Translations under genes and position numbers: made by a program
In this document: positions 2,453-20,152 of the stretch, piece after piece
Layout of the letters: the number at the start of each line of letters is the position of its first letter
Numbering within the stretch: position 1 is the stretch's first letter
The notes under the pieces: generated by a model
The model's database searches: none
What the model saw: the letters and a program-made list of their open reading frames with translations, nothing else
Told to the model about the DNA's origin: nothing
NCBI GenBank assembly: GCA_045543375.1
Contig: JAZQMI010000032.1
Location: forward strand, 1 to 50,938
DNA from: Eubacteriales bacterium
GTDB taxonomy: Bacteria > Bacillota > Clostridia > Oscillospirales > CAG-272
DNA length: 50,938 nt
Direction: 5' to 3'

Positions 2453-3730
2453 TCAAATATGTCCGATATCGGCGATCTCTCCGCCGCCGTTTTCGGGGAC
2501 GAGCGCGTCGTCGAAATGGATCATGACGTTTTGCGAGGCGAGCTTTGCCTGCAGCGTCGGCACGTCGATCTCATCAATTCCCTTTCCCGTATCAATGGCC
2601 TGGCAAGCGGCAAGTCCTGCCGCCTGACCCGTGACGATGGCAGGCGGAATGACGCGCAGCACGTCCCACGCATACCCCTCGGCGGCTGCGCTGCGCCCTG
2701 CGGTGATCAAATTATCATATCCCGAGCAGATGAGCGTTCTGTACGGCACCTCCATCAGATAATCGCGGCGGTCAAAGTCACAGATGGCCGAGATGGAATC
2801 GTCAAAGTGACGGTAGAAATCGTTTTCCGTGAGTGCGTAGTCGCCCTTGATGCAGCGCGTGGTGCGGTACTGGCACATACCCGGCATGGTCACAACCTCG
2901 CGCGTAAAGCGGTCGGTCTTTTTGAGGTTGTTGAGCAGCTCCTTATGGTTGGTGATCAGATAGCGGTTAACGTCCTTGGCATCCGTGCCCGTATAGTAGG
3001 GCATGCCCTCGGGGTGCCCCCCACCGTACAGGTTGGCACCACCGCCCGACGCACCGCCGATGGCGTTGTTGATCTTGCCCGACTCGACCGCCTTCTTGCA
3101 CGAATCCAGCGTGACCGTCTTGACGAAAAAACTGTGGTAATTCTTGCCCTGCACGCAAGGCACACCCGCGCGGTACAGAATATCGGCATCGCCCGTCACG
3201 TCAATGACGATATCCGCCTCATAGTAGCCCGTGCCCGACTTGTTTTCGACGATCAGTCCCTTGCAATGCTTGCCCTCCATCACGGGGCGGGTGACGACGG
3301 TGTCGAACATGAGCTCGACGCCCTCGTCCGAGAGCAGCTCGGTCAGCGTCAGCGCGAAGATATCAGGGGAATAGCGGTTAAGATAGCGGGGATAGTTGCC
3401 GTTTTCCACGGCAGGTCCCTGATACGTACCGCCCTGCTCCCACCCCTTGGGAATGGTATCCCAGCTGTATTTGGTCGACAGGCGGAAAAACTCCTCGGCC
3501 ATGCCGAAAATGATCTGCTTACCGCGACCGTTGCACATGGGGACGAACAGATTGATCAGTCCCAGCGTGCCAAGACCGCCCAGCTTTTGCGATTTTTCGA
3601 TGAGCAGCACACTCTTGCCCTCACGCGAGGCGGCAAGTGCCGCCGCTGCACCGGCCAGACCGCCACCTGCAACGATAACGTCGTATTTACCGAGATGTTC
3701 ACACTCCAGCTGCAAGGTAATATTTGCCAT
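2453..3730 (-). CDS. FAD-dependent oxidoreductase (FAD_oxidored / GidA-like fold family)
   Basis: N-terminal dinucleotide-binding motif YDVIVAGGGLAGAAAALAASREGKSVLLIEK. RBS GGAGGA lies 4 nt upstream of the ATG at 3730. No signal peptide. Confidence 0.75.
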   Translation of the reverse strand: MANITLQLECEHLGKYDVIVAGGGLAGAAAALAASREGKSVLLIEKSQKLGGLGTLGLINLFVPMCNGRGKQIIFGMAEEFFRLSTKYSWDTIPKGWEQGGTYQGPAVENGNYPRYLNRYSPDIFALTLTELLSDEGVELMFDTVVTRPVMEGKHCKGLIVENKSGTGYYEADIVIDVTGDADILYRAGVPCVQGKNYHSFFVKTVTLDSCKKAVESGKINNAIGGASGGGANLYGGGHPEGMPYYTGTDAKDVNRYLITNHKELLNNLKKTDRFTREVVTMPGMCQYRTTRCIKGDYALTENDFYRHFDDSISAICDFDRRDYLMEVPYRTLICSGYDNLITAGRSAAAEGYAWDVLRVIPPAIVTGQAAGLAACQAIDTGKGIDEIDVPTLQAKLASQNVMIHFDDALVPENGGGEIADIGHI

Positions 3731-3747
3731 AATGTCCTCCGATAGAG

Positions 3748-3777
3748 AAAGGGCGAGGCGACATCGCCTCGCCCTTT
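3748..3777 (-). terminator. hairpin between the cupin and FAD-oxidoreductase genes (terminator or attenuator)
   Basis: AAAGGGCGAGGCG acat CGCCTCGCCCTTT, a perfect 13-bp stem. On the minus strand it is followed by TTTCTCT and then the RBS of the downstream gene. Confidence 0.6.
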
Positions 3778-3822
3778 GATGGGTTCAGTATATCACAACT
3801 TTCTCCTGATGTCAAGGGGAAA

Positions 3823-4605
3823 TCAGCTCTTTTTACCGTCCGCGCTGAACGAATTCCACTTGCCCGTGGGCTTGTGGCTTGCCTCAAGGCGGGCCAGACC
3901 CAGCTCGTTGTCCGGCATGAAGTCGATCCACATGTAGTGCATGTGACGGTCACCCGTGACCTCAACGCCGTGGTTGGAGCCCAGAGGGATGTAAAGAATG
4001 GTGTCGCCCTTCATGGGAATCTTGTCGTCGTCGATGATGACCTCCATGTCGTTCTCGGGGAAGCTGAAGAAGAACTGGTCGAGCATGGGATGGCTGTGGG
4101 GCTTGACCAGATCGTAACCAAACGACTCGACCGAGCCCAGCGAGAAGCGAGGAATGATCTTGTGGGGGATCATCATACGGCTGATGGTCTTCTCGCTCTT
4201 GTTGGGGTCGATGTACTGGATGGAGTTGCGGTACAGCACGTAGTGCGGGAAGGTCGTGCCGTACTCCTTGAGCATACCCTCATCCTCGGGGAAAATATCC
4301 CACTGGATCTCAAGTATCTGGGTATCGGTCAGAGCCTTAACGACAAGCTCCTGATCGGCACCGGGCACATAGGTCACTCTCTCGTTGAAGCGAATGGTTT
4401 CGCCGTTGCAGACGAAATCAGCCTCACCGCCGATGAGAATGAGAATGTGATAGTAGCCCGTGTTGGCGGCGAAAACGGTTTCGCTGCCGGCAACGATGGT
4501 ATGGTGGTAGGGACGCGAGCCGGGGATGACGCCGTGGCACAGCGGCAGCACGCGGTTTTCCTTTTGGGTCATGTCAATGACTTCCATGTGAAGATCGTAG
4601 TTCAT
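3823..4605 (-). CDS. cupin-fold protein, KduI/IolB-like sugar isomerase candidate
   Basis: I trimmed the tracked ORF (3823-4872) to the ATG at 4605, which is preceded by GAAAGGAA. The removed upstream part runs through palindromic repeat DNA. Cupin metal motif PHSHPMLDQ ... IPLGSNHGV. The layout resembles IolB/KduI (PHKHD ... PAGYHP) from memory. Confidence 0.6.
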   Translation of the reverse strand: MNYDLHMEVIDMTQKENRVLPLCHGVIPGSRPYHHTIVAGSETVFAANTGYYHILILIGGEADFVCNGETIRFNERVTYVPGADQELVVKALTDTQILEIQWDIFPEDEGMLKEYGTTFPHYVLYRNSIQYIDPNKSEKTISRMMIPHKIIPRFSLGSVESFGYDLVKPHSHPMLDQFFFSFPENDMEVIIDDDKIPMKGDTILYIPLGSNHGVEVTGDRHMHYMWIDFMPDNELGLARLEASHKPTGKWNSFSADGKKS

Positions 4606-4651
4606 GATGATATTCCTTTCTGCGGGACATTGCCCGTTCTTTGTGCTTTTT

Positions 4652-4982
4652 AGGGGAAACCCCACTTGTGGTTTCCCCTCTTTTTCGCTCCGCGAAAAAT
4701 TCACCCTTTCGGGCGCCTTGGAAGCATAGGGGATTTCGCCCTCTGCGGAGGGCGACGAGGGCTTCGCGCCCTCGACCGCGCCACCTTTTGAAAAAGGTGG
4801 ACGAAAACTCTTTATAACACACTGGCCATGTGTCTGAACTTCGACACCAGACTTTTGGGGCAGGGGCCCCAATTCACCCTTTGATGTTGTTGGGATAAAG
4901 GATGGGAGCTATCGAGCCAATTTTCCTTTTTTCCAAAAAGTTTTTGGGGGTCGTAGGGGACTTTTTTCAAAAAGTCCCCTAC
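4652..4982. repeat. array of eight back-to-back short GC-rich palindromic hairpins (REP/insulator-like)
   Basis: Stems at 4652-4679, 4681-4699, 4736-4755, 4756-4774, 4781-4800, 4855-4872, 4933-4947 and 4953-4982. The 12-mer AATTCACCCTTT occurs twice (4699 and 4871). Confidence 0.8.
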
Positions 4983-5000
4983 ATCCGTTTCCCTCGTTCC

Positions 5001-7211
5001 TCACTGATCCTCTTCCAATCGCGAGCCGTTGACCGACATAACGCGGTCGACGACGAGCTGACGGAAGGTGGGCGAGAGCATAGCGAAGAAGGCGGTAAAG
5101 CCCGTAACACGCACGACGAGGTCGGGATACTTCATGGGATCCTTGTGAGCCTCGAGTATCTTTTTGCCGTCGATGATATTGATGTTGAGCAGTGTGTTAC
5201 CCGTCGACATGATGGTCTTGATCATAGCGGCCATTTTGTCAACGCCCTCCTCGTCACCGACAATGCCGGGATCGAGCTCAAGCTGGACGGGCGCGCAGTT
5301 GCCGTAGCCGGGCTGGATCGCACCGATCGAGTTGCACATGGCGGTCACCGCACCGTCGCGGCGGAAGCCGCCGTTGGGGTTGGCACCGTGGTTGATGGGC
5401 TCGAACGCCTTGCGTCCATTGGGGGTCGCGCCGACCGTCTTACCAAGACCGATGGTATTCGACCAGGAGAAGAAGCCGGGAATGAAGTTGATTCCCTTAT
5501 ACTGATTGCAAAGATCGCGCACGAGCTTAGTGTACAGCTCGTTGACCTTTTGCGCCCATGCGTCACCCAACGTGCAGCCGCCACCGTAACGGGGGCTGTG
5601 CAGCAGCATCTGACGCACGTACTCGCCGCCCTCGAAGTTGCGGTCAAGCAGCTCGGTCAGCTTTTCGTAGGTCAGCTTACCCTCGCGGTCGATACGGCTC
5701 TCGCAGGCGGCAAAGCTGTCTGCCACCACGGCAAGGCCACTGCCATCCACGCACATGTTGTAGTAATTCGCGCCGCCGTCGGTGATGTTCAGACCCTTCT
5801 CGATCAGTCCGTGCTGGAACAGATTGAGAATGAGCTCGGGCTGGCTCTTGCTCTGATATTTCAGATGGTGCATGATGCCTGCGCCCGTTGCGTCAACGGC
5901 GACCTTGAGATGCTTCTGATAATAGCTCCACAGCTCGTCGATCGAGGGCTGCTCGCTATGTGCCATCATGTCGCGATAAGCAACGTCAAACACCTTGAGC
6001 AGATTGATCTTGACCGTGTCGTTCATGGTATATTCCATACCGGGAATGCACATCCAGTGGCAGCCTGCCGCCACGCGGCGACGCGCAAGATCCTGCGAAT
6101 AACCGCACTTCATAAATCCCGCAACGAGAGCGCTGTCAGACGAATAACGAGGCCAGCCCTGCTTGTTTTTGAACAGATAGGCAACCGACTTGCGGAAGAA
6201 GTCCTCGTTCATGTTATCGTGCACGCGCACGGTCAGGTTGCATGCGATATTGATCTTATCCGCAGCCTCAAGGCACAGATAAGAGATGTGCGAGATCATA
6301 TCCTCGCCGTTCTCGTCGGGACCGCCAAGCTGGAAGTAGCGGCTGTCCTGAAGGAACAGACAAGCAAGGTAGAAGACGGCCTCGTCGTCGGTCAGCTTAC
6401 CGGCAGCCACGTCGCGCTCGTAGTAGGGGCGCAGCATCTCATCAAGCTGTCCGCCCGCGCTTCCGCGGTTGTAGGTACGGGACAGCATGCTGAACCAGCA
6501 CATCCACTGTACCGCCTGACGGAAGGTCTCGGGCTTGCCCGAAACGATGGCACGGTTGCACTCTGCCATATCGACAAGATTCTGCTTGAGAACGGGGTGC
6601 GTTTCCTTTTCGGCAAGCGCCTCGATCTCGTCGGTCATGCGGCCGAGGAAGGCGATGATGGCCTTGACCACGGCGATCTCGGCGCGATAAAAGTCGGCGT
6701 GAGATTCGTCGTGCAGCTTTTCTTGCTCCTCAAGCTTTTGGAGGATTCCGCCCCAGCCCAGATCGAAACCGATCTGAAGATCGGGCGTGAAGTGATGACA
6801 GTTGTCGATACCCGAAATAATGTTGTAGCGATCGAAAATTTCTTGCAGATCGGGGTACGCATAATCGGGGTTCCACTTTTTCTTGGGTGGACGCAATCTC
6901 TCAAGGAACAGAAATCCCTTGCCAACGAATGCGTCGAGCGCGTCGATGTACAGCGGATGCTCCGAGAGCAATCGGCAATAGTTGCTCGACCAAGCGTCGT
7001 AGCCGTAGATAGAGCCGTTCTTGTGGCTGGGTTGCAGCTTGAATTTGAACTCGTCCTGAACGATCAGACCGTAGTCGTCCTCGTCTGCGCCGCCCAGCTT
7101 TGCCTTTTCAGCCGTCTGGTCGACCTTGCGCTGACGCAGAAGGGCAATTCTCTTGTCATAAGACAACTCTTCATCGGGAGAATAGCAGTTGATAAATTTG
7201 ATGGCACTCAT
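5001..7211 (-). CDS. glycyl radical enzyme (PFL-like superfamily), atypical, substrate unknown
   Basis: C-terminal glycyl radical motif VVRVTGFTAFF (Gly704, codon 5100-5102). Motif GATPNGRKAFEP matches the family ATPDGR motif. Cys loop AAGCHWMCIPG (Cys384). At 736 aa it is shorter than most GREs. It lies 2 nt downstream of its activase. Confidence 0.9.
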   Translation of the reverse strand: MSAIKFINCYSPDEELSYDKRIALLRQRKVDQTAEKAKLGGADEDDYGLIVQDEFKFKLQPSHKNGSIYGYDAWSSNYCRLLSEHPLYIDALDAFVGKGFLFLERLRPPKKKWNPDYAYPDLQEIFDRYNIISGIDNCHHFTPDLQIGFDLGWGGILQKLEEQEKLHDESHADFYRAEIAVVKAIIAFLGRMTDEIEALAEKETHPVLKQNLVDMAECNRAIVSGKPETFRQAVQWMCWFSMLSRTYNRGSAGGQLDEMLRPYYERDVAAGKLTDDEAVFYLACLFLQDSRYFQLGGPDENGEDMISHISYLCLEAADKINIACNLTVRVHDNMNEDFFRKSVAYLFKNKQGWPRYSSDSALVAGFMKCGYSQDLARRRVAAGCHWMCIPGMEYTMNDTVKINLLKVFDVAYRDMMAHSEQPSIDELWSYYQKHLKVAVDATGAGIMHHLKYQSKSQPELILNLFQHGLIEKGLNITDGGANYYNMCVDGSGLAVVADSFAACESRIDREGKLTYEKLTELLDRNFEGGEYVRQMLLHSPRYGGGCTLGDAWAQKVNELYTKLVRDLCNQYKGINFIPGFFSWSNTIGLGKTVGATPNGRKAFEPINHGANPNGGFRRDGAVTAMCNSIGAIQPGYGNCAPVQLELDPGIVGDEEGVDKMAAMIKTIMSTGNTLLNINIIDGKKILEAHKDPMKYPDLVVRVTGFTAFFAMLSPTFRQLVVDRVMSVNGSRLEEDQ

Positions 7212-7213
7212 CT

Positions 7214-8146
7214 TTATCCCACCTTTCCCACAATGCCTGCGCGCTCAATAAGAGCGAGCAGCTCGTCAAGGCGTGCCTTGTTCAAGGGTCTTGCGTCTGC
7301 GTGCGCGTTGGCTGCCGACAGCGACTCATACTTGGCACCGCCCAGCGTGTTGAAGTTGAGCAGCTCGTAGCGAACGAGATGCTTCATATTCTTAATATAG
7401 TCGGCGATTGCCGAAATGTTCTCATCCGTATCGGTCACACCGGGAATGAGCGGCGTGCGCACGATAAAGGGGACGCCCAGCTCGTCGAGCTTTTTGGCAT
7501 TTTCGAGCACCTTTTGGTTGCTCACGCCCGTATACGTCTTGTGCGCTTCGTCGTCCATCAGCTTGATATCGAACATAACGAGATCGCATTTTTGAAGTAC
7601 GCTCTCGATGCGGTCAAAATCAAAGCAAAGGTTGGTTTCAATGGCAGCGTGGATACCTTCGGCGTGCGCAGCGTCGATTAACTGCTCGACGAAAGGCGAC
7701 TGGCAAAGGCACTCGCCACCCGACACGGTCATGCCGCCGTTCGAATTGTCGTAGTAGGGCTTATCCTGCACGACCTCGGCCATGATCTCCTTGGCCGACA
7801 TTCTCTTGCCGCAAAGCTGCAGTGCCTCGGCGTAGCAGGCTGCGGCACATTTGCCGCAGCCAACGCATACGTCGCGATCGATGCTATGTACGCCGTTTGC
7901 GATGCTGTGTGCACCCTGCGGGCACACCTCAACGCACTTTCCGCAGCCGATGCAGCGGATGGGGTAAAACATGATCTCGGGCATGTGCTTGAGCGTTTCG
8001 GGGTTATGACACCACGAGCAATGCATCTGGCAGCCCTTCAAAAACACAGTGGTACGAATACCGGGGCCGTCCTGCAGCGAAAAACGCTGAATTTCGGTCA
8101 CGATGCCCTTGATCGCACCCGTGAGCTTGTTATCGTTGTCCATCAT
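7214..8146 (-). CDS. glycyl-radical enzyme activating protein (radical SAM)
   Basis: Radical SAM cluster GCQMHCSWCHNPE plus two ferredoxin-type motifs, CIGCGKCVEVCP and CVGCGKCAAAC. The 310-aa length is typical of non-PFL GRE activases. Confidence 0.9.
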   Translation of the reverse strand: MMDNDNKLTGAIKGIVTEIQRFSLQDGPGIRTTVFLKGCQMHCSWCHNPETLKHMPEIMFYPIRCIGCGKCVEVCPQGAHSIANGVHSIDRDVCVGCGKCAAACYAEALQLCGKRMSAKEIMAEVVQDKPYYDNSNGGMTVSGGECLCQSPFVEQLIDAAHAEGIHAAIETNLCFDFDRIESVLQKCDLVMFDIKLMDDEAHKTYTGVSNQKVLENAKKLDELGVPFIVRTPLIPGVTDTDENISAIADYIKNMKHLVRYELLNFNTLGGAKYESLSAANAHADARPLNKARLDELLALIERAGIVGKVG

Positions 8147-8147
8147 T

Positions 8148-10034
8148 TTATCTTTCCTCGAGCTCTACCCACTCGCCGCTCTCGGCGCTCTTGTACATCA
8201 TATCCAGTACGTAGCGCGAACGGCTACCTGCCTCGGGACCGACGACCAGTGCGTCGCCCGTGCGCAGGCAGTAAGCAAAGTTATCTGCACCCTGGTTCCA
8301 TTCTCTTTGTACGGGGTACGGAGATTCCTCCGTCCACTTGCCGTCCTCGCGCGACCAATAAATGTGCTCGCCCTCGGGACCGCCCGAGGTCAGAAGGTAT
8401 GCACCCTTGTCGCCGTACACCTCAAGACGGGTGTACCAGGTGTTGACGGGGTAAGAGGTGGTCGACGAGAAGCGGGCAACAAAGCCGTTCTCATACTGCC
8501 ACTCGGTGATACCGTAGTCGTCGACCTCGATGTCGTGCGTCTGGGTGTAGGTCGAGCAGCGAACCTTCTTAGGCATGCCGAAGCAGGTCAGCAGACGGTC
8601 GATCTCGTGGATACCCTGATTGCTCAGTGCTCCGCCGCCGTCCATAGCCCAGGTGCCTCTCCAGCCGCCGTTCTCCTTGAAGTAGGAGGCGGGACGCTTG
8701 ATGTTCAAAATCATATTGGCGCTCTTGAGCTTACCGAAGTAACCGCCCTCGACAGCCTTCTGCAGCTCCTTGAGCGGGCCGCGGAAATGCAGGTCGAAGT
8801 CGCAGCCGAGCAGCAGTCCCTTTTCCTTGGCAAAGGCAATGAGCTCGTCGCAACGCTGATAGTTGACGTCCATGGGCTTGGTCAGAAGGACGTTCTTGCC
8901 GGCCTCCAGGCACTGCTTTGCCACGCGGCAGTGATCGCCCGTGGGAACGACGACGTACATGACCTCAACGGCGGGGTCGTTCAAAAAGGTGTTGATGTCG
9001 GTGCTATAGGGAACCTTGAACTGCTCGCCGATCTCCTTGGCGCGCGCCTCGTTGATGTCGCAAACGCCATACAGCTTGATACCGTTGGTGTTGGTGATCT
9101 GTGCGCAGCGGTTCTTACCCATACCAAGGCCGACGACGACCATGTTGACGGGGTTATCGTTGTAGGGACGGTCGAACATCTGGACGGGCGAGAGCGCCGA
9201 CTTCATATCGCCGGGGGCGCTGGCGGGCCAGACGCGCTTGATGTAATCGTAGCACTTCTTGGTTGCCTGCTCACCGTTCAGGCCTACGCCTGCGGGAACG
9301 TGCGTTTCGATCGACACAGGCATATCCTTGCCCGTGACGAGCGCGCCGCGAAGCACTCTCTCCCACGGAACCTTCTTGCCCTCGACCTCAGCAAGCACAC
9401 CGCGCGACTTGACGTGCAGCATGTTGGCATATTTCAGGCACTTGGTGAAGTAGTCCACGCAGTCGCCCTTGGCCTCGGGCAGAATCTCAAACATATTGGA
9501 AACGTCCCAAGCCATACCCCAGCCGGGCACGTTGAGCTGCTCCAGTACGGTGATGACCTCGTCGGGCGTCTGACCGCAGTTTTCAATGCCGAGGATCAGA
9601 CCGGCCTCCTGCGCACGCTTAGCAAAGGGATAGAACATTTCCAGCACCTGAGCCTGTGCGTCGGGGCGCATGGCCAGCTCGCCGCACTTGGGATCGTACT
9701 GGTCGTGCTGCCAGAAGTTGAACGAACGGACCAGACGGCAATCCAGCACGTCGGCCGCGCGGATGATACCCTCAAGCTTTGCCATTTCCTTGGCAACGCC
9801 GTCAGGGCCGGGCAGGTGAACCTTGCACAGCGAAGACTGGATAACACCCGTCTTCAGACCAAGGCTGTCGAGCTGTGCACGAAGAGCCTTGAGTTCGTCC
9901 ATGGTCAGATTTTCAATGGGCTTACCGAACACTCTGGAACGGAAGTCCACGTACTTCATCCCCCAAGAAGCAATGGTAGGCAGGATCTCGGTAACTTCTC
10001 TTTGAAGCTCGTCAGTAAACACGGATACGTACAT
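8148..10034 (-). CDS. fusion protein: xylose-isomerase-like TIM barrel (aa 1-270) + Gfo/Idh/MocA NAD(P) oxidoreductase (aa 296-628)
   Basis: The N-terminal half has the sugar-phosphate isomerase/epimerase pattern (..LGIENCG.., ..SIETHVP..). The C-terminal half begins with Rossmann VNMVVVGLGMGKNR and has ..EAGKNVLLTKPM.. typical of Gfo/Idh/MocA. RBS AAGGAGAA. Its stop is 1 nt from the activase start. Confidence 0.8.
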   Translation of the reverse strand: MYVSVFTDELQREVTEILPTIASWGMKYVDFRSRVFGKPIENLTMDELKALRAQLDSLGLKTGVIQSSLCKVHLPGPDGVAKEMAKLEGIIRAADVLDCRLVRSFNFWQHDQYDPKCGELAMRPDAQAQVLEMFYPFAKRAQEAGLILGIENCGQTPDEVITVLEQLNVPGWGMAWDVSNMFEILPEAKGDCVDYFTKCLKYANMLHVKSRGVLAEVEGKKVPWERVLRGALVTGKDMPVSIETHVPAGVGLNGEQATKKCYDYIKRVWPASAPGDMKSALSPVQMFDRPYNDNPVNMVVVGLGMGKNRCAQITNTNGIKLYGVCDINEARAKEIGEQFKVPYSTDINTFLNDPAVEVMYVVVPTGDHCRVAKQCLEAGKNVLLTKPMDVNYQRCDELIAFAKEKGLLLGCDFDLHFRGPLKELQKAVEGGYFGKLKSANMILNIKRPASYFKENGGWRGTWAMDGGGALSNQGIHEIDRLLTCFGMPKKVRCSTYTQTHDIEVDDYGITEWQYENGFVARFSSTTSYPVNTWYTRLEVYGDKGAYLLTSGGPEGEHIYWSREDGKWTEESPYPVQREWNQGADNFAYCLRTGDALVVGPEAGSRSRYVLDMMYKSAESGEWVELEER

Positions 10035-10355: not shown

Positions 10356-10381
10356 AAAAAGAGATAATGGAGGATAGTAGC

Positions 10382-11905
10382 ATGAAAAGATTGCTCACCC
10401 TGTTGCTGGCAGTGATGATGATCGCATCCGTATTTGCTTTCGTCGGCTGTGGCAACGACACACCCAACCCCGACCAGCCCGGTCAGCCCGACCAGCCCGG
10501 CACCACCGATCCTGCCACGCCCGGTAGCTCGGATCAGCCTGTCGGCGACGGTATTGACTACATCACGCAGGTCGAAGTAGAAAACTTCAACAATGCATGG
10601 ATCACCATCCTTTGCCGTGAGGACAAGGAGTACGAGATGTACACCGAAGAGGATGCCGCCGCTCTGGTCGATCAGGCCGTTTACGCTCGTAACAACCGCG
10701 TAGCTGACCTGTTCAAGGTTCAGATCGAAACGCATCCCGTTGCAGGTACCTGGGAGCAGCAGCAGACCTACATTCAGGCTCTGGCTCAGTCGGTTTCTGC
10801 CGGTGACGACGCTTATCAGATCGCCGCTACGCACACGGCTTACAACTCCAACTTGACCATTCAGGAGCAGTACTACGATCTGCGCACGCTGGGCAACGCC
10901 ATCAACCTGGACGCCGCTTGGTGGTCGCAGTCGTTCAATGAGAACTGCACCGTTTACGACAAGCTGTTCTTCACCACCGGTGACCTTGCCCTGACCATGT
11001 GGGAGGGTATGTACGCCGTATACTTCAACAGAAAGCTTGCTACCGACTACGGTGTCGGCGATCTGTATCAGATGGTCCGCGACAAGGAGTGGACGATCGA
11101 GACGCTGACCGAGCTCACCGCAGGTCTGTATCAGGACAACGGTGATGACACCATGGGTCCCGAGGATACCTACGGTCTGCTGATCAACCGTCACGCAATG
11201 CGCGTATTCCTGACCACCTGCCAGCTTCCCATCTGCCAGCGTACGACGGACGGCGGCTACAAGCTGACCCTCATGGACGAGGAGCACATTGATAAGACCA
11301 CGACCGTATACGATAATCTTTACGATCTGATCTATGAGAACGATGGTACTTACGATTCCCAACTGCAGGACGGCGACTACACCGAGATGAACGAGATCTT
11401 CACCGCAGGCCGCTCGCTGTTCATGATGGGTGAGCTTCGCGTCACGCCCTCTCTCCGCGCCGCTGATATGGAGTTCGGTATCCTTCCCTTCCCCAAGTAC
11501 GACGAGGAGCAGGAAGAGTACTACGCTCACACCTACGACGGTCTGTCTTCCTTCGCTATCCCGCTGTCCGCTAAGGATCCCGCCATGTGCGCTAAGATCC
11601 TGGACGCTATGGGTGCAGAAAACAAGACTTCCGTTATCCCCGCTTACAACGAGATCGTGCTTGACGGTCGTGTAGCTCAGGACGGCGATTCCCGCGAGAT
11701 GCTGGGTATCATCCGTGACAACCTGTACTTCGACTTTGGTTTCGTTTACTCCAACACCATGGGTACTTCGGGCGTTTCCGGTCCCTTCGCTCTGTACGGT
11801 GACGCACTGCGCAGAGGAAGCGAGTCCTTCATCTCCGAGTGGGATCAGTATGCAACTGCACTGGCTACCAACTTGGAGGACGTGCTGGCCAAGTTTGACC
11901 AGTAA
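10382..11905 (+). CDS. extracellular solute-binding lipoprotein (family 1 sugar ABC SBP, about 500-aa LplA/YtcQ-like class), orphan
   Basis: Start set at the ATG at 10382, 8 nt after GGAGG. Signal peptide with lipobox MKRLLTLLLAVMMIASVFAFVGC, then a Pro/Asp/Gln-rich linker. Size and composition fit large sugar SBPs. No permease genes are nearby. Confidence 0.75.
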   Translation: MKRLLTLLLAVMMIASVFAFVGCGNDTPNPDQPGQPDQPGTTDPATPGSSDQPVGDGIDYITQVEVENFNNAWITILCREDKEYEMYTEEDAAALVDQAVYARNNRVADLFKVQIETHPVAGTWEQQQTYIQALAQSVSAGDDAYQIAATHTAYNSNLTIQEQYYDLRTLGNAINLDAAWWSQSFNENCTVYDKLFFTTGDLALTMWEGMYAVYFNRKLATDYGVGDLYQMVRDKEWTIETLTELTAGLYQDNGDDTMGPEDTYGLLINRHAMRVFLTTCQLPICQRTTDGGYKLTLMDEEHIDKTTTVYDNLYDLIYENDGTYDSQLQDGDYTEMNEIFTAGRSLFMMGELRVTPSLRAADMEFGILPFPKYDEEQEEYYAHTYDGLSSFAIPLSAKDPAMCAKILDAMGAENKTSVIPAYNEIVLDGRVAQDGDSREMLGIIRDNLYFDFGFVYSNTMGTSGVSGPFALYGDALRRGSESFISEWDQYATALATNLEDVLAKFDQ

Positions 11906-12230: not shown

Positions 12231-13133
12231 ATGGAGGGGACGACGCTTATGGAAGATTTTTACCTGGAACGGAGATTGCGTATCTTCACGGATAGCGATC
12301 CCATCACGTTCGCATACAAAACGTCTTACGACGTTCCGTCGATTCACAATCTGCATATTCACCACAACTACGAGTTGTATTTTTATATTGAGGGTGACGC
12401 CGATTACATCGTCAACAATGCTTATTATAAGCTGCACCGTGGCGACGTTATGATCATCAGCCCCAATGAAACACATATGCTGGTACTCAAAAAGCCGTGT
12501 CAGTACACTCGCTTTTATATGGTATTCCCGCCTAACGTGTTCATCAACCACATCATCAACCCACTCCAGACGCTGCTGCGCCGCACGACGGGTGGCTCTG
12601 CCAAGCTGACACTGACTCCCGATATGTGGGATCGCGTATACGGCATGATGCAGGACATTCTTCGCGTTTGCCGCGACGACCCCGATGATTCGGGCGAGCT
12701 TCTGCACACCAAGATCTACGCCATGCTGCTGCAACTGTTGTGCTCGTTGAGCGAAAAAACCACTTCGGTGCAGTCGGTCGGCGACCAGTTCGGTGCGGCA
12801 CATCTGCCCGGCCCCATGCGCGAGGCCATGGCTTACATTGAAACGCACCTGACGCAAAACATCACGGTGCGCGAGATTGCCGAGGCCATTCATATCTCTC
12901 CGCCTTATCTGTCCTCGATCTTCCGCAAGCACATGGGCGTGCCGCTGGTCACCTATCTGCAAACGCGCAAGATCGTGCTCGCCAAGCAAATGCTGGAGGA
13001 GGGGCGGTCGGTCACCTACGCCTGCTATGAGAGCGGATTTTCGGATTGCTCGTATTTCATTCGCATCTTCAAGCGTCATCTCGGCATGACGCCGCTGCAA
13101 TACCGCAATTCCTTCCGCAACTCGGAAAAATAA
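12231..13133 (+). CDS. AraC family transcriptional regulator (N-terminal cupin sensor + C-terminal double HTH)
   Basis: N-terminus has an AraC-type cupin (HIHHNYELYFYIEGDADY...HRGDVMIISPNETH). C-terminus has the HTH_18 pattern (IAEAIHISPPYLSSIFRKHMG ... ACYESGFSDCSYFIRIFKRHLGMTPLQYR). The start could instead be the ATG at 12249. Confidence 0.9.
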   Translation: MEGTTLMEDFYLERRLRIFTDSDPITFAYKTSYDVPSIHNLHIHHNYELYFYIEGDADYIVNNAYYKLHRGDVMIISPNETHMLVLKKPCQYTRFYMVFPPNVFINHIINPLQTLLRRTTGGSAKLTLTPDMWDRVYGMMQDILRVCRDDPDDSGELLHTKIYAMLLQLLCSLSEKTTSVQSVGDQFGAAHLPGPMREAMAYIETHLTQNITVREIAEAIHISPPYLSSIFRKHMGVPLVTYLQTRKIVLAKQMLEEGRSVTYACYESGFSDCSYFIRIFKRHLGMTPLQYRNSFRNSEK

Positions 13134-13135
13134 TC

Positions 13136-13172
13136 AAAAAGCATCACGGACTTTGCGTCCGTGATGCTTTTT
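13136..13172. terminator. bidirectional terminator between convergent genes
   Basis: AAAAAGCATCACGGAC tttgc GTCCGTGATGCTTTTT, a 16-bp stem that includes an A-run and a T-run. Confidence 0.85.
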
Positions 13173-13173: not shown

Positions 13174-16170
13174 TTATTCCTTGGCAAACGCCTCGTTGAG
13201 CATGCGTGCAATGTTCCGCATGCGCTCGGCGTCGACTTTGACCGCTTGGCGGTCGTAGGTAACAAGACCGTTGACCTCGTCCTCGACGTCGCTGAGCTGT
13301 GTCAGCACAAGCGCGCAGAGATTGGTATTGCGCAATGCGGGCACAATCTGTTCGCCGTACAGGTGCTCCAGAGCCGTGATCAGCTCGTCTGTGCTGTGAT
13401 AGGTCGCATAGCCGTAGCTTGCATCAAGATTGAAAATATGACCGTCCACGCCAAGACAATAGCCGCCAAATTCGGACAGCACGATCGGGAGCGTTTGATT
13501 TGATCTGAGGCGAACGGGCTTGAAATAAACGTGCTCACTTTGAACGTCGCTGCGTCGGGGTCTGAACCAGCCCGATGCGCTGTCCCAGATGCGCGTCGGA
13601 TCAAGCAGCTTCATTTCATCGTAGATGCGCGCGGTATCGTACTGTCCCCAGCCCTCGTTAAAAATGGTGTAGTAACAGACGCAGGGACTGTTGTACAGCA
13701 GATTAACCGTTTCCTTGGCCGCACCTTCAAAGGCGGCGCGGCGGCGCGGACTTGCGTGATGTGCAATGCCACGTTTGAAGGCAACGGTCGGCAGCGCGGT
13801 GTCGATCAGAAACGAATAGTTGCCGCTGTTGACCATGTCCTGGAACACGGACATGCCCAAGAGATCGCAATAGTAATAGAACAACGCAGGCTCGATCTTG
13901 ATGTGCTTGCGCAGCATGTTAAAGCCCAGCGACTTGGCCGTTTGAATATCAAAGCGGTAACCCTCGGGATCAGCGGGCAGATAGATGCCGTCGCTGAAAT
14001 AGCCCTGATCGAGCAGGCCGTGGAACAGATAGGGCTTACCGTTGAGCGCGGTCACGGGACCGTTATTTGTATCAACGACCGTGACGGTGCGCAAGGCGAA
14101 ATAGGACTCGACTCTGTCCTCACCGCACACGAGCGTGAAGCGGTAGAGATAGGGGTGCTCGGGCGACCAGAGGTGTACCTCGTCGGGTGCGAGCGTGAAC
14201 ACGTCACCCTCGTAGCAGTATTCACGATCCCCTGCCTCGGTATGCAGCACGATCGTCTTTTGCGCCGTGCCTCCCGTCGTTTCCACCGTCACGCACTCAG
14301 TCGACGGCGTCAAACGCAAAGAGCGGATATGCTCGGCGGGCAACGCTTCCATCCAGACCGTTTGCCAGATGCCGCTGGTGGGCGTGTACCACATGCCGCC
14401 GCGACGCTCGCGCTGCTTGCCGTAGGGCAGTTCCCGATCAAGCGCGTCCTGCACGCGGACGGTCAGCGTGTTTTCTCCCTCGCGCCACGCGCTTGTCACG
14501 TCAATCGAAAAAGGATGATAGCCACCCTCGTGCTCACCGACGGGCGTGCCGTTCAAGCATACCCGGGCAATCTGATCGACCGCGCCAAAGTGCAGCATCA
14601 GCCGCTTGCCCTCACCAAAAAATCCGTCGGGCAACGTGACCGTGCGCTCGTAAACAAGAATATCTTGTTTTTCAAAGCGGCACTCAATGCCCGAGGCGCG
14701 GGATTCGGGCGGAAACGGCACGAGAATATCACCCACACACTCGGTCTGCCCCTCACGCTCAAGAGCGAGTGACCAGCGACCGTTCAGGCACAGGTAGGAA
14801 TTGCGCTTCATTTGCGGACGGGGATATTCCTGCCACGGAATGTCGCCCATGTTCTGTTCAAATGGCGTGCCGAGCGACACCGTACGGGGCATTTTTTTGT
14901 GTCCGATCCACCACACGAGCAGCACGACGGGCACGGCGGCAAGCAATGCTGCCACGAAGATATTTTGATTGGGTACGAACGAGGTCGTTCCGTCGCCGTT
15001 GACCACAACGTCAGCGTTGCGCAGCACCGTCTTACCGATCCACGGACCGATGACACCGGGCAGCAGCACCTGCGAGCAAATGCGTACGCCTTGCAGCATA
15101 CCCGAACGCCCAGCGGGGGTCAGATCGCGAATGAGGGCACCGAACACGGCCATGCCGCAAAGGTAGCCGCACATCATGAGCAGCGAGCCAACGAACACAA
15201 GTACCGTTCCACGGAACAGCATGAGCAGCACGTAACCGACCATCAAAGACGCCAGTGCCGGCATGACCGCGCCCGAAAATCCGCGCTTGTCGTACACGTG
15301 CCCCCAGAAAAAGGTAGCGACCGACGCAAGCACGATGGCGGGTGCCATGATGAGCACGTAATCCTTCATGCCCAGCGACACCTCGTAATAAAGAATGAGG
15401 TAAGGCATGAAGATCTGAATGGAAATATTAAATACGACAAAGGTGATCAAGGCGCGGTAGAGCGTGGGGTTTTTGCGCACCGTCGAGGGGCGGAAGCCGT
15501 AAACGATGCCCTGCCAATAGGGCACGTCACTTTTTCTGATGGGCGGCTCTTTGATCAAAAACAGCCCTGCGATGCCAACGACAAGCGTCAGCGCGCCGAT
15601 GATGGCAAAGATATACGACCAGCTTTGGCTTTCGTCCAGATTGAACGCCATAAAGCCACCAAACACACAGAGAATGGCGACCAGCGGCATCATGGCGTTG
15701 ATACCCTCGGCCGCGCCGCGGTTGCCCTCATCGGTCATGTCGGTCAGCCAGGCGTTGAAGGCGGCGTCATTGGCGGTCGAGCCGAAGAAGGTCATGACGC
15801 AGTCCATGATGATGACCAAGGAAACGCCCACGGCAGCCGCCGACACGGTCATGGGAACGAGCGGCTCGATGACGTCAAGTCGGATAAACACAAAGCTGAA
15901 AATCGAGATGCCCCAGAGGATATAACCGCCGCACATGAACAGCTTGCGCTTGCCCACGCGGTCGGACAGCGCGCCCATGAGCACCGTCGTCAGCGTGGCT
16001 GCCACGGCGCTGGCGGCAACCATGGCGGAAATATCCGATGGAGTTGCGTTGAACATCTTATAGATAAAGACGTTGAAATACATGTTTTCCACGACCCAGG
16101 CGATCTGACCCATCAACGAAAAGACGGTCAGTGCGCACAAAAATCGCGGCGATAGCTTGCTTTTGCTCAT
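13174..16170 (-). CDS. fusion protein: GPH/MFS-type glycoside transporter (aa 1-425, about 12 TM) + glycoside hydrolase family 2 (aa 440-998)
   Basis: One uninterrupted 998-aa ORF. The N-terminal half is hydrophobic and MFS-like (..GALSDRVGKRKLF..). The C-terminal half has a GH2 sugar-binding region (LHFGAVDQIARVCLNGTPVGEHEGGYHPFSIDVT), acid/base IFNEGWG and a nucleophile-like LSEFGG. RBS AAAAGGAGAAG. Confidence 0.8.
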   Translation of the reverse strand: MSKSKLSPRFLCALTVFSLMGQIAWVVENMYFNVFIYKMFNATPSDISAMVAASAVAATLTTVLMGALSDRVGKRKLFMCGGYILWGISIFSFVFIRLDVIEPLVPMTVSAAAVGVSLVIIMDCVMTFFGSTANDAAFNAWLTDMTDEGNRGAAEGINAMMPLVAILCVFGGFMAFNLDESQSWSYIFAIIGALTLVVGIAGLFLIKEPPIRKSDVPYWQGIVYGFRPSTVRKNPTLYRALITFVVFNISIQIFMPYLILYYEVSLGMKDYVLIMAPAIVLASVATFFWGHVYDKRGFSGAVMPALASLMVGYVLLMLFRGTVLVFVGSLLMMCGYLCGMAVFGALIRDLTPAGRSGMLQGVRICSQVLLPGVIGPWIGKTVLRNADVVVNGDGTTSFVPNQNIFVAALLAAVPVVLLVWWIGHKKMPRTVSLGTPFEQNMGDIPWQEYPRPQMKRNSYLCLNGRWSLALEREGQTECVGDILVPFPPESRASGIECRFEKQDILVYERTVTLPDGFFGEGKRLMLHFGAVDQIARVCLNGTPVGEHEGGYHPFSIDVTSAWREGENTLTVRVQDALDRELPYGKQRERRGGMWYTPTSGIWQTVWMEALPAEHIRSLRLTPSTECVTVETTGGTAQKTIVLHTEAGDREYCYEGDVFTLAPDEVHLWSPEHPYLYRFTLVCGEDRVESYFALRTVTVVDTNNGPVTALNGKPYLFHGLLDQGYFSDGIYLPADPEGYRFDIQTAKSLGFNMLRKHIKIEPALFYYYCDLLGMSVFQDMVNSGNYSFLIDTALPTVAFKRGIAHHASPRRRAAFEGAAKETVNLLYNSPCVCYYTIFNEGWGQYDTARIYDEMKLLDPTRIWDSASGWFRPRRSDVQSEHVYFKPVRLRSNQTLPIVLSEFGGYCLGVDGHIFNLDASYGYATYHSTDELITALEHLYGEQIVPALRNTNLCALVLTQLSDVEDEVNGLVTYDRQAVKVDAERMRNIARMLNEAFAKE

Positions 16171-17443: not shown

Positions 17444-18214
17444 TTATTCTCCGAGTGGATGGAAAAATATTCGCTTACGTCCGCCATCGTCATACAGCAC
17501 GACGGGCTGCATACCAAAGACGCGGACGGGGATATCGGTATCAAGCAGTTCGTTCGGCGTACCGACAAAGCCGATCGTTCCATCGCAAACGACGATCAAT
17601 CGGTCGGCGTATTGCATGGCACACGAGAGGGAATGTGTCGCGGCAAGTACCGCTTTTTTCCTGTCGCGGCACAAGCCCTTCAGCAGCCCGAAAAAGTGGT
17701 GTTCATGATCGGCGTCCATAAAGGCGGTCACCTCGTCAAGCAGCATGAGCGGTGTATTTTGCGACAGCATCATGCCCAGATACGCCCGACGCGCCTCACC
17801 GCCCGACAGACAATCAAGATATGCGTCTGCCAGATCGGTCAATTCGGCGTCGTGCAAAGCGGCTGCGATCGCACGCGTGCAGTCGGGTGTTGACGTGCCG
17901 TTCAAGGATTGATACGGGCTGAGCCCCATCGCAACAAGCTCTCTTACCTTGATGTGCGGCAGCGCGGGCTGCTGCTGCATGAGTGCTACGCGGCGGGCAC
18001 GCTCGCGTGGGGAAAGGGAGAGTAAGTCCTGCCCGTCAAGGCGCACGCTTCCGCGGCAAGGCAAAAGCCCGCAGACAGTATGAAGCAGCGTGGACTTTCC
18101 ACTGCCGTTGCGCCCGATCACGGCAACGAATTCGCCTCTTTCAAGGCCAAAAGAAACGTCATGAAGAACTTCTTTTCGCTCATATCCGAGCGAGAAAATC
18201 TGACATTGCAGCAC
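17444..18214 (-). CDS. ABC transporter ATP-binding protein, iron-chelate/cobalamin (FecE/BtuD) type
   Basis: Walker A GRNGSGKSTLL, signature LSGGEARR, Walker B LMLLDEVTAFMD. GTG start at 18214, 6 nt after AGGAGG. Confidence 0.85.
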   Translation of the reverse strand: MLQCQIFSLGYERKEVLHDVSFGLERGEFVAVIGRNGSGKSTLLHTVCGLLPCRGSVRLDGQDLLSLSPRERARRVALMQQQPALPHIKVRELVAMGLSPYQSLNGTSTPDCTRAIAAALHDAELTDLADAYLDCLSGGEARRAYLGMMLSQNTPLMLLDEVTAFMDADHEHHFFGLLKGLCRDRKKAVLAATHSLSCAMQYADRLIVVCDGTIGFVGTPNELLDTDIPVRVFGMQPVVLYDDGGRKRIFFHPLGE

Positions 18215-18225
18215 GTGGCACCTCC

Positions 18226-20149: not shown

Positions 20150-20152
20150 GGA

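Follow-up and report, generated by a model that had tools for sequence, protein, structure and literature searches.

The window, a stretch of 50,938 nucleotides from an Eubacteriales bacterium, carries on its minus strand five co-directional genes whose coordinates and domains, as given in an earlier note on this DNA, were borne out by the ORF positions and by Pfam and NCBIfam. In order these are a TIM-barrel::Gfo/Idh/MocA fusion (628 aa, 8148-10034, AP_endonuc_2 and GFO_IDH_MocA domains), a radical-SAM activase of a glycyl radical enzyme (GRE) (310 aa, 7214-8146, TIGR02494, Radical_SAM and Fer4), the GRE itself (736 aa, 5001-7211, PFL-like and Gly_radical domains), which belongs to what we here call the 'CxW' clade, a bicupin (260 aa, 3823-4605, weak Cupin_2 matches) and an FAD-dependent oxidoreductase (425 aa, 2453-3730, FAD_oxidored PF12831). 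Successive genes are separated by 1, 2, 395 and 92 nt, and antisense ORFs showed no family match. On the plus strand, a divergently transcribed gene (10367-11905) encodes a lipoprotein of 512 aa with a signal peptide and a lipobox Cys. This protein, which had been described as a sugar-type solute-binding protein, had no Pfam or NCBIfam matches and resembled a maltodextrin-binding protein only faintly (E = 0.0015); it is possibly a family-1 solute-binding protein. No permease genes adjoin it. The two other described flanks were confirmed by Pfam, namely a regulator of the AraC family (12231-13133, plus strand; HTH_18, HTH_AraC, AraC_binding), which has a cupin sensor domain at its N-terminus, and a 998-aa ORF (13174-16170, minus strand; MFS_1, Glyco_hydro_2_N/_N2/_2) in which an MFS transporter (residues 32-376) is joined to a GH2 glycosidase. 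The best match of this ORF, a weak one, was to the NCBIfam beta-glucuronidase model PRK10150 (75 bits, cut-off 544), and a related locus (L007) is likewise flanked by a GH2 homologue.

Both the GRE and its activase are intact. The activase scored 342.3 bits against TIGR02494 (cut-off 174) and carries a ferredoxin-like two-cluster insert, and the GRE matched the PFL-like and Gly_radical Pfam models at 326.9 and 54.1 bits, respectively. Its glycyl motif RVTGF, containing Gly704, is complete and the catalytic Cys384 is kept in the loop AAG-C-H-W-MCIPG. In alignments to 2f3o, PflD and CutC, C384 coincides with the catalytic Cys, and W386 occupies the position of the substrate-binding Glu in the CXE motif, the place of which is taken by G-C-[H/S]-W. 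C384 and W386 are invariant among 79 orthologues and 22 distant relatives down to 26% identity. Asp398 aligns with a conserved Asp of PflD and 2f3o, and the invariant His140 is a candidate equivalent of glycerol-dehydratase His164, as extrapolated from alignment end-points. Altogether 195 of the 736 positions were invariant over 79 species. According to a June 2026 GRE review, CXE is kept by all eliminases and isomerases, including YbiW, PflD and HplG, and a class like the present one does not appear there. Known eliminases and isomerases thus have a C-x-E loop, whereas the enzyme described here has G-C-x-W. As the Glu of CXE is missing, the base needed by known C-O-cleaving GREs is gone and the chemistry may differ. 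Curated NCBIfam equivalog models for GREs gave 73-217 bits against cut-offs of 994-1150, and the closest solved structures in the PDB, the orphan A. fulgidus PFL2 and PflD, matched at 181-187 bits. A search of 1.84 billion representatives placed the protein in a separate clade with full-length relatives at 38-53% identity. The expectation that this GRE would not cluster tightly with any characterised one therefore stood, and on its sequence we regard the clade as previously uncharacterised.

The neighbourhood was compared among 81 related loci, 42 of which, from different species and each flanked on either side by 6 kb or more, are referred to as full loci. The core of activase, GRE and bicupin recurred in 77 of the 81, with the activase directly upstream of the GRE (median gap 12 nt) and the bicupin downstream of it. 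All full loci encoded the activase and the bicupin, 38 a Gfo protein, 33 a TIM barrel (15 of them as a TIM::Gfo fusion) and only 10 the flavoprotein, and an AraC gene adjoined the cluster in 32. Spacing was operon-like; the median gaps were 12, 21 and -1 nt. The hosts belong to Clostridia, Spirochaetota, Kiritimatiellae, Lentisphaeria and Verrucomicrobia, and were found in herbivore gut and digesters. The synteny is not accidental. Homologous GREs of about 80 species occur together with the cupin and with Gfo and TIM genes, including the same fusion, which goes against the refuting case named in the earlier note, an accidental adjacency; the flavoprotein is linked only loosely.

The bicupin is an obligate neighbour of this GRE clade and is inherited together with it. 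Its ORF reaches back to a TTG at 4872; the start that fits all homologues, however, is the ATG at 4605, which has a GAAAGGA ribosome-binding site. In its C-terminal barrel, alignments showed conservation of a metal-type motif (H170-x-H172 ... D176/Q177 ... H212). The family is small with about 474 proteins, and the PDB held no sequence match. An AF2 model (pLDDT 92.5) had generic bicupins as its best fold matches; an IolB-like structure came only 15th at 11% identity and PF04962 was not matched, and the earlier label of a KduI/IolB-like cupin had to be dropped. Other loci encode an additional PMI-like cupin (manA model, 99 bits, cut-off 116), found in 41 of the 42 full loci, with the window as the sole exception, and in 58 of 64 loci with enough downstream sequence. 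It escaped the earlier note because the window lacks the gene. The flavoprotein matched PF12831 at 199 bits, and its AF2 model (pLDDT 83) resembled geranylgeranyl reductase, the fumarate reductase/SDH flavoprotein and sarcosine oxidase with a TM of only about 0.4. Between the bicupin stop and the flavoprotein start (3748-3815, minus strand) lie a sigma70-like promoter match (TTGACA-17-TATACT with TG) and, after it, a 14-bp perfect hairpin, both consensus matches only. This promoter-like site, the low frequency among full loci and the occurrence of homologues (58-67% identity) outside GRE clusters loosen the link, and the flavoprotein is possibly a separately transcribed accessory member.

The hairpin array reported between GRE and bicupin (4606-5000, minus strand) was recovered as four inverted repeats of 9-14 bp, with a predicted RNA fold of -157.9 kcal/mol (z = -6.5 against shuffles) and a 14-bp perfect stem as its first element 3' of the GRE stop codon. 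None of the other loci among the 81 has a GRE-to-cupin gap as long as these 395 nt (median 21 nt). The spacer was not conserved in L007, which is 95% identical, had no Rfam match and was not repeated elsewhere in the window.

Within the fusion, the TIM half (residues 21-264) matched AP_endonuc_2 at 52.6 bits and, among profiles, nothing stronger than weak matches to D-tagatose 3-epimerases, while separate TIM proteins of other loci resembled TM0416, the 5-keto-L-gluconate epimerase IolO, ketose 3-epimerases and YcjR. The Gfo half (residues 297-625) matched GFO_IDH_MocA, _C and _C3 at 78-85 bits. It is similar to glucuronide and UDP-GlcNAcA 3-dehydrogenases, and its nearest PDB structures were WlbA-type sugar 3-dehydrogenases (3q2i, 3q2k) and the P2B11 glucuronide-3-dehydrogenase (8tdi, 77 bits). 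Every Gfo protein scanned with NCBIfam matched the IolG model, which was the top match for most including the fusion of the window, but always well below cut-off. Cyclitols may thus still be substrates. Genes adjoining other clusters point to a hexuronate-type sugar acid: TRAP transporters in 10 loci, UxuA in seven, a UxuB-type SDR in six and UxaC in two, as well as a KDG/IolC-like PfkB kinase in L052. These TRAP, UxuAB and UxaC markers occur in a minority of loci and none is found in the window. In locus L029, UxuA (510 bits, cut-off 191) and a D-mannonate oxidoreductase (438 bits, cut-off 281) are encoded between activase and GRE, and the structures nearest to one TRAP binding protein had been solved with glucuronate and galacturonate. 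LplABC-type ABC transporters were present in seven loci, and SGNH and other esterases inside some operons. CUT1 ABC systems, esterases, rhamnosidases and GH94 in some loci suggest that lineages may vary in their substrates or in where these come from. GREs of the sister clade also occur with sugar transporters, Gfo and PF12831 genes, one of them (53% identity) beside a CUT2 monosaccharide/inositol-type ABC system and a ROK protein. Some sister loci consist of transporter, activase and GRE and nothing more, which suggests that the imported compound itself may be the substrate of the GRE, in contrast to the earlier proposal that oxidation or isomerisation comes before the radical step.

Our tentative reading, to which we give somewhat less than an even chance, is that the operon serves to degrade a six-carbon carbohydrate, with a hexuronate-type sugar acid or its glycoside as the likeliest candidate, and is built on an uncharacterised GRE clade and radical C-O cleavage, the latter being inferred by analogy. 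The activase would install the radical on Gly704, and a thiyl radical at Cys384 would then abstract hydrogen at one of the sugar's carbinol carbons. The substrate radical would expel the adjacent oxygen substituent (water, a ring or ether oxygen, or methanol), and return of the hydrogen would give a deoxy-keto sugar (acid). The bicupin, elsewhere together with the PMI-like isomerase, might move the carbonyl in the fashion of IolB/KduI, and the TIM::Gfo module might oxidise, epimerise or reduce keto intermediates. Carbon would end as fructuronate/mannonate or as a KDG-type keto-deoxy acid destined for kinase and aldolase. The flavoprotein could add an optional redox step and the AraC regulator probably controls the operon.

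An anaerobic variant of inositol or methyl-inositol (e.g. pinitol) catabolism appears unlikely. Here Gfo would be IolG, the TIM protein IolE, IolI or IolO, the cupins IolB and PfkB IolC, with the GRE taking over from the IolE/IolD steps through radical dehydration, elimination of methanol or opening of the carbocycle. The IolG matches, the similarity of separate TIM proteins to IolO, TM0416 and, more weakly, IolI, the match of the L052 kinase to the IolC N-domain model, the IolB-like structure among the bicupin fold matches and the CUT2 system of the sister locus are consistent with this, and inositols and pinitol are plentiful in herbivore diets. However, no Gfo or TIM protein reached an Iol equivalog cut-off, IolD, IolJ and IolA were not noticed, and TRAP transporters typically need a carboxylate on their substrate. 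Together with the bona fide UxuA/UxuB embedded in the L029 operon and UxaC elsewhere, the neighbours make a sugar acid more likely than a neutral cyclitol or C-glycoside. In another reading the GRE would be a ring-opening isomerase in the manner of YbiW/PflD, cleaving the ring C-O bond of an anhydro-sugar or glycal-type compound such as 1,5-anhydro-hexitols/uronates, or of an enone from oxidative cleavage of O-/C-glycosides by Gfo and TIM, with the resulting deoxy-ketose processed by the two cupin isomerases. We consider this rather improbable. PflD is one of the two closest solved GREs, the cleavage of 3-keto-glycosides and C-glycosides makes use of Gfo and TIM pairs, and there were weak matches to DgpA, the BT_2158/2159 families, YcjR and the TIM proteins 8tcd/8tcs, which we presume to belong to such a pathway; glycosidases (GH2, GH78/106, GH94) and esterases also lie near some loci. 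Yet the CXE retained by YbiW, PflD and HplG is absent from this clade, the conserved core is devoid of phosphotransferase or sugar-phosphate logic, and loci that have TRAP transporters but lack a glycosidase speak for a monomeric free acid.

The hexuronate context (TRAP, UxaC, UxuAB), the LplABC-type transporters, the esterases and the herbivore gut and digester hosts would also suit de-etherification, in which the methyl ether of 4-O-methyl-D-glucuronate from glucuronoxylan is removed by radical 1,2-elimination of methanol and the 4-deoxy-keto-uronate is converted to KDG by the KduI-like bicupin and a reductase. KduI acts on 4-deoxy-uronates, and a bicupin following the GRE parallels it. The basis of this scheme is its chemical plausibility, and it has a small chance of being correct, since no GH67/GH115 alpha-glucuronidase was seen adjoining the clusters, polar beta-elimination at uronate C4/C5 needs no radical, and UxuA/UxuB would be superfluous for a 4-deoxy product. 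Public annotations that name GRE homologues 'formate acetyltransferase' would agree with an accidental or degenerate locus, an ordinary PFL or glycerol-dehydratase paralogue merely beside sugar genes. This is scarcely credible and is contradicted by the PFL model score (73 bits, cut-off 994), the lack of a Cys-Cys pair, the synteny kept in full loci across phyla and the many invariant GRE residues.

We therefore return to the sugar-acid operon. No paper was found that describes this GRE clade or links a GRE to this gene set, and with a divergent GRE and preserved synteny the earlier suggestion of an undescribed anaerobic pathway persists, its likely substrate shifted from cyclitols and C-glycosides towards sugar acids. 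The cluster, in which an oxygen-sensitive radical enzyme is accompanied by sugar-modifying enzymes, is carried by many anaerobic gut bacteria and points to an unknown breakdown route for a sugar of plant or host origin, probably a sugar acid.

From the ORF list and the Pfam and NCBIfam domains we confirmed the five minus-strand genes described in the earlier note. They encode a 628-aa fusion of a xylose-isomerase-like TIM barrel with a Gfo/Idh/MocA oxidoreductase (TIM::Gfo; 8148-10034; AP_endonuc_2 at residues 21-264 and a complete Gfo/Idh/MocA protein at 297-625), a glycyl radical enzyme (GRE) activase (7214-8146; TIGR02494, 342 bits, cut-off 174), the 736-aa GRE (5001-7211; PFL-like domain PF02901 with 326.9 bits and Gly_radical domain PF01228 with 54.1 bits, both above cut-off), a cupin, here termed the bicupin (3823-4605; weak Cupin_2 and AraC_binding matches below cut-off), and a flavoprotein with a Pfam match to PF12831 (2453-3730). 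The gaps between these genes are 1, 2, 395 and 92 nt. Family matches were found in the minus-strand frames only, and overlapping plus-strand ORFs were without any. The mechanically called cupin ORF begins at a TTG (4872); the ATG at 4605, which is preceded by GAAAGGA, agrees with where all homologues begin.

Judged from its sequence, the GRE belongs to the GRE superfamily on every criterion that could be tested, yet to no CHARACTERISED class. Its glycyl radical motif (R701-V-T-G704-F705) fits RVxG[FWY] and is invariant in 79 orthologues, and C384 falls on the catalytic cysteine in residue-level alignments to 2f3o, PflD and CutC. The Cys loop reads GCHWM in the window GRE versus GCVEI, GCVEL and GCVEP in these alignments. 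A GRE review gives a CXE motif as a requirement for GRE eliminases and isomerases. Our GRE has G-C384-H-W386 at this place, with Trp in the Glu column, and we refer to proteins with this exchange as the CxW clade. Among 79 full-length orthologues from different species G383, C384, W386, M387, P390, G391, E393, Y394, H140 and RVTGF are invariant, position 385 holds either His (72 sequences) or Ser (7 sequences), and the invariant positions of the GRE number 195. C384 and W386 were still invariant in a 22-sequence alignment reaching down to 26% identity, where the position after the Cys is H, N, F, Q or P. Asp398 (Cys+14) pairs with an Asp of PflD and 2f3o by alignment, and His140 would correspond to His164 of glycerol dehydratase by extrapolation from an alignment end-point (query 142 = chain 166). 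His164 is described in the same review as the acid protonating the leaving hydroxyl.

The proposed distinctness from characterised GREs held up, as every curated equivalog stayed below its cut-off, the best PDB match reached 187 bits and the CXE Glu is a Trp. Scores were 73 bits for the PFL model TIGR01255 (cut-off 994), 217 for the PFL model PRK09983 (1109), 215 for HpsG (1000), 207 for HypD (1100), 195 for CutC (1050) and 111-115 for the HPAD and IAD decarboxylase models (1100-1150), to which the GRE thus showed no equivalog likeness; CutC, HypD, HpsG and HpfG together spanned 185-215 bits against cut-offs of 1000-1100. Sequence matches to the X-succinate synthases BSS and MASS were weak (66-75 bits), and among the genes on the cluster maps no conserved small ORF resembling their accessory subunits caught attention. 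Among solved structures the PDB search placed an orphan PFL2 of Archaeoglobus first (187 bits), followed by PflD (181 bits). An ordinary PFL was rejected because the adjacent Cys-Cys pair of PFL/TdcE is absent, a lone Cys being followed by His, and because of the TIGR01255 score of 73 against 994. The cognate radical-SAM activase lies 2 nt upstream of the GRE in the window and adjoins it in 77 of 81 loci.

Among 1.84 billion representative proteins we found full-length relatives of the GRE at 38-53% identity (515-877 bits) and a second shell at 30-34% identity (270-360 bits); these representatives are unannotated, and characterised GREs were placed via the PDB search, at no more than 187 bits. 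At the protein level, more than 120 clusters (90% identity level) had 74-95% identity to the window GRE, all annotated at most as "formate acetyltransferase", and when each species was represented by a single genome, 80 loci at 59-95% identity were found. The clade occurs in about 80 species of five phyla. Hosts are Oscillospiraceae, Christensenellales, Lachnospiraceae and other Clostridia, Sphaerochaeta and other Spirochaetales, Kiritimatiellae, Lentisphaeria and Victivallales, and Verrucomicrobia. Most loci stem from metagenome-assembled genomes (MAGs) recovered from the guts of ruminants, other animals and humans or from anaerobic digesters, and one cultured isolate, Chakrabartyella piscis BP5G, is among the carriers. 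The nearest relative (L007) is a yak-caecum MAG with a 95% identical GRE and the same gene order. Sister-clade GREs, too, have sugar-related surroundings: one at 53% identity is accompanied by a ROK protein and an ABC system of the CUT2 monosaccharide type, and one at 45% identity by a pair of Gfo genes, a PF12831 flavoprotein, ABC permeases and a regulator of the LacI family. Next to the sister GRE P0127 only a PFK-family gene was seen, and P0130 and P0133 lie on contigs too short to show a neighbourhood. Another sister-clade protein (P0132, 1052 aa) is a natural activase::GRE fusion, with the activase in the N-terminal ~300 aa, followed by a CxW-type GRE (Cys loop GCNWF).

For neighbourhood counts, ORFs were called in all loci, clustered, and searched with the window proteins and with locus-derived profiles; the full-locus set consisted of the 42 loci that extend 6 kb or more to either side. 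Conservation of the five-gene neighbourhood across genomes was borne out for most of its members, with the activase and the 260-aa bicupin in all 42 full loci, Gfo/Idh/MocA in 38 and a TIM barrel in 33, the latter occurring 15 times as TIM::Gfo fusion and 19 times as a separate 265-aa protein. The flavoprotein, counted in the earlier note as one of the five, was no steady member (10/42). An AraC regulator was present in 32/42. A further gene encoding a ~350-aa PMI-like cupin was found in 41/42 full loci, and in 58 of the 64 loci with enough downstream sequence; the window is among the six without it. Median gaps were 12 nt from activase to GRE, 21 nt from GRE to bicupin and -1 nt from bicupin to the PMI-like gene. 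The absence of known GRE partners was likewise confirmed: the conserved neighbourhood is without microcompartment (BMC) shell, aldehyde dehydrogenase, P5C reductase or sulfite reductase genes. BMC domains were found neither in the scanned window proteins nor in the fetched neighbourhoods of related loci, and formate-channel domains were lacking among the scanned window proteins.

Some loci carried additional genes. Locus L029 encoded a genuine uxuA and a D-mannonate oxidoreductase inside the activase-GRE interval (8084-9981), and the short contig L017 carried homologues of both. An SGNH/GDSL esterase gene lies between activase and GRE in L001-L003 (e.g. 8913-10004 in L001), and in L004 the genes just upstream of the activase (5690-9029) encode an esterase of the beta-lactamase family together with an AEC transporter and a nitroreductase. 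Esterases of the beta-lactamase family occur in the operons of L004 and L019-24. These esterases within or near the operons hint that the natural substrate may be esterified. Four loci (L051, L052, L055 and L063) encoded, within the operon, a MATE efflux protein between the PMI-like and flavoprotein genes, which would be unusual if the pathway only served sugar breakdown.

With about 474 proteins, the family of the bicupin is small. The bicupin had been described as a KduI/IolB-like cupin, which we rejected: it had no match to the Pfam KduI/IolB family (PF04962) or in NCBIfam and nothing usable in the PDB sequence profile search, and the IolB-like structure 2qjv ranked only 15th by fold (TM 0.63, 11% identity). 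Its AF2 model (pLDDT 92.5) shows two barrels of a generic bicupin, with best fold matches (TM ~0.7) to DUF861/YlbA-type proteins, quercetinases, ureidoglycine aminohydrolase and BacB. The C-terminal barrel contains, according to alignments, an invariant H170-x-H172...D176/Q177...H212, a predicted motif typical of metal-dependent cupins. In the TIM::Gfo fusion both Gfo/Idh/MocA domains, the N-terminal Rossmann and the C-terminal alpha/beta domain, are present (PF01408 82 bits, PF02894 78 bits, PF22725 84.5 bits). This half was closest to WlbA-type sugar 3-dehydrogenases and a glucuronide 3-dehydrogenase (8tdi), with weaker matches to DgpA, 1,5-anhydrofructose reductase and inositol dehydrogenases, and the fusion scored 74.8 bits with the IolG equivalog TIGR04380 (cut-off 355). 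The TIM half matched AP_endonuc_2 with 52.6 bits (cut-off 31.1) and showed otherwise weak ketose-epimerase matches only. The separate TIM protein of other loci is of another subfamily than the fused one (hhalign probability 86%). It resembles TM0416, D-tagatose and D-psicose 3-epimerases and the 3-keto-D-glucoside 4-epimerase YcjR, and in NCBIfam it matched psicose 3-epimerase and the 5-keto-L-gluconate epimerase IolO, all below cut-off. The PMI-like protein scored 99 bits with class I manA (cut-off 116).

The flavoprotein is part of a large family with homologues of 58-67% identity outside GRE clusters, and its model (pLDDT 83) resembled geranylgeranyl reductase, fumarate reductase/SDH and sarcosine oxidase with TM ~0.4, a general two-domain flavoprotein fold. 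In the 92-nt gap upstream of its gene we found, on the minus strand (3748-3815), a near-consensus sigma70-like TTGACA-17-TATACT with extended TG and a 14-bp perfect hairpin. Promoter match and hairpin suggest that the gene may be a separate transcription unit. With homologues also outside GRE clusters, we treated the flavoprotein as accessory. The hairpin array of 395 bp reported after the GRE was found as such: the spacer 4606-5000 holds several perfect or near-perfect hairpins formed by inverted repeats (RNA fold z = -6.5 against shuffled sequence), and it is the longest GRE-to-bicupin gap among 81 loci. There was no second copy within the window, no match to Rfam in the window, and L007 has not kept this sequence and carries different hairpins of its own. 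Since the spacer is unrepeated in the window and unconserved in relatives, we rejected it as a conserved riboregulator of the operon. It may be a transcript-processing or attenuation element that uncouples the GRE from downstream expression.

Both an AraC regulator and a transporter::GH2 fusion flank the locus, as previously proposed and now confirmed by Pfam. The latter is a single 998-aa ORF on the minus strand (13174-16170) with MFS at residues 32-376 and GH2 at about 500-900, an unusual architecture for a transporter and a hydrolase, and could be either a genuine fusion or an assembly/frameshift artefact; L007 has GH2 at the same position. The weak top match of the window GH2 was a beta-glucuronidase, and within the window this GH2 is the sole pointer to a substrate. 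Between this gene and the convergent AraC gene lies a 16-bp perfect palindrome with A and T runs on either side (13136-13172), which looks like a bidirectional terminator. The AraC gene is next to a plus-strand gene for a 512-aa lipoprotein (10367-11905), for which a sugar-type solute-binding protein had been suggested. Of the suggested sugar-binding identity, a faint likeness to maltodextrin-binding protein was left. It had no Pfam or NCBIfam match, no informative PDB match and no adjoining permease genes, and may be an orphan binding protein or sensor. The remaining window genes are unrelated (iron or cobalamin-type ABC transport, NIR_SIR, GH92, pyrimidine nucleoside phosphorylase and a thioredoxin-reductase-like protein). 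Among them, at 17444-21073 on the minus strand, an ABC ATPase, a FecCD permease and Peripla_BP_2 are followed by a small nitrite/sulfite-reductase-type (NIR_SIR) protein with a ferredoxin insert; this group lies ~10 kb from the GRE and was not counted as linked to it.

YbiW and PflD are "anhydroglycolysis" isomerases acting on 1,5-anhydroglucitol-6-P and 1,5-anhydromannitol-6-P. Like the window GRE, each of them is PFL-like and has its own activase, and their carbohydrate substrate matches the one predicted for the window GRE in kind. In the alignment with PflD, Asp398 and both the Cys and the Gly loop find their counterparts. They differ by low similarity, by the CXE Glu instead of Trp, by their sugar-phosphate context and by their aldolase partners, whereas the window GRE is accompanied by bicupin, Gfo and TIM proteins, and in other loci by the PMI-like cupin. 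Glycerol/propanediol dehydratases, CutC, HypD, IslA and HpsG/HpfG share the fold and the activase type, and the invariant Asp398 and, by extrapolation, His140 would take the places of the substrate-binding Asp and His of dehydratases; unlike glycerol/propanediol dehydratases and other 1,2-eliminases, however, the window GRE has no CXE and an N-terminus shorter by ~50-100 residues.

The partner genes recall three further systems. Inositol catabolism (Bacillus IolG/E/B/C, Thermotoga IolO/TM0416) uses the same families of Gfo, TIM barrel, cupin isomerase and PfkB kinase, but the GRE operon reaches no Iol equivalog, has no ThDP enzyme IolD, includes a GRE, and its bicupin lacks the KduI/IolB Pfam. 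With the hexuronate pathways (UxaC-UxuB-UxuA and KduI-KduD) it shares genuine UxuA, UxuB and UxaC and uronate-like TRAP binding proteins near the GRE core in several species, and the order of bicupin and then reductases parallels KduI/KduD. YcjS/YcjR, BT2156-2160, DgpA/DgpBC and P2B11 combine a Gfo-type sugar 3-dehydrogenase with a TIM epimerase/lyase as does the GRE operon, although its Gfo and TIM matches to these oxidative glycoside-cleavage systems were all below family cut-offs, and we know of none of them with a GRE, an activase or a bicupin. The gene set thus resembles a hybrid of inositol and hexuronate toolkits, oxidative glycoside cleavage and a GRE. To our knowledge, no hexuronate route involves a radical enzyme, and GREs are likewise not known from inositol catabolism or oxidative glycoside cleavage.

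Regarding the substrate, we favour, by analogy with genes found near the GRE, a hexuronate-type sugar acid, the carbon of which would end as fructuronate/mannonate or as a keto-deoxy acid. UxuA was found in 7 loci, a UxuB-type SDR in 6 and UxaC in 2, and the L029 enzymes scored 510 bits as mannonate dehydratase (cut-off 191) and 438 bits as D-mannonate oxidoreductase (cut-off 281). None of these genes occurs in the window or in most loci. A TRAP transporter adjoins the cluster in 10 loci and LplABC-type ABC systems were found in 7. One type of TRAP binding protein showed its top likeness to 4x8r and 4n8y, which a published analysis lists as glucuronate- and galacturonate-bound. A PfkB kinase in L052 resembles KDG kinase or IolC, and rhamnosidase and GH94 genes flank some loci. 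A cyclitol route was kept alive because IolG was matched by every Gfo protein scanned, always below cut-off, and was the best-matching model of most of them, and because the separate TIM protein is IolO-like. Quinate or shikimate, to which TRAP transporters, esterases, the MATE exporter and an AsbF-type TIM would point, was set aside because genuine UxuA and UxuB are embedded in the L029 operon.

In the mechanism that we propose, the activase would generate a radical on Gly704, and the resulting Cys384 thiyl radical would take a hydrogen from a hydroxyl-bearing carbon. The substrate radical would then expel an oxygen substituent from the adjacent position, where His140 may assist as an acid, and return of the hydrogen would give a deoxy-keto product. 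The bicupin and the PMI-like isomerase might move the carbonyl, and the Gfo and TIM proteins might oxidise, epimerise or reduce the keto intermediates. Invariant Glu393 and Asp398 of the same loop are candidates to stand in for the CXE base. Since the CXE Glu is absent, a different type of reaction is also possible. We consider it a tentative reading, less likely than not, that CxW GREs form a new functional class with radical chemistry novel to GREs on free sugars or sugar acids, such as dehydrating or de-etherifying an unactivated ring position or opening a carbocycle or pyranose ring without a Glu base; that the family-specific bicupin is an obligate partner, which either takes care of a reactive product or binds to the GRE in a complex; and that gut anaerobes thereby possess a widespread, overlooked fermentation route for plant or host sugar acids or cyclitols.

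We regard the finding as a new GRE clade with a proposed new pathway. In the searchable literature to September 2026 we found no description of the CxW GRE clade. GREs carry out difficult anaerobic reactions in gut microbiomes such as conversion of choline to TMA, hydroxyproline dehydration, sulfonate cleavage and anhydro-sugar glycolysis, and, as far as we know, each newly assigned GRE clade has exposed a new nutrient route. The CxW clade stands out by its abundance, wide distribution and strong conservation, by the change from CXE to CxW and by its fixed partner protein, the bicupin. With Chakrabartyella piscis BP5G as a carrier in culture, the substrate of the clade can be put to a direct test. 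Assignment of the substrate would add a class of GREs and explain a conserved operon of poorly cultured fibre-degrading Clostridia, and might uncover how a recalcitrant sugar acid, methylated sugar or cyclitol is handled anaerobically.
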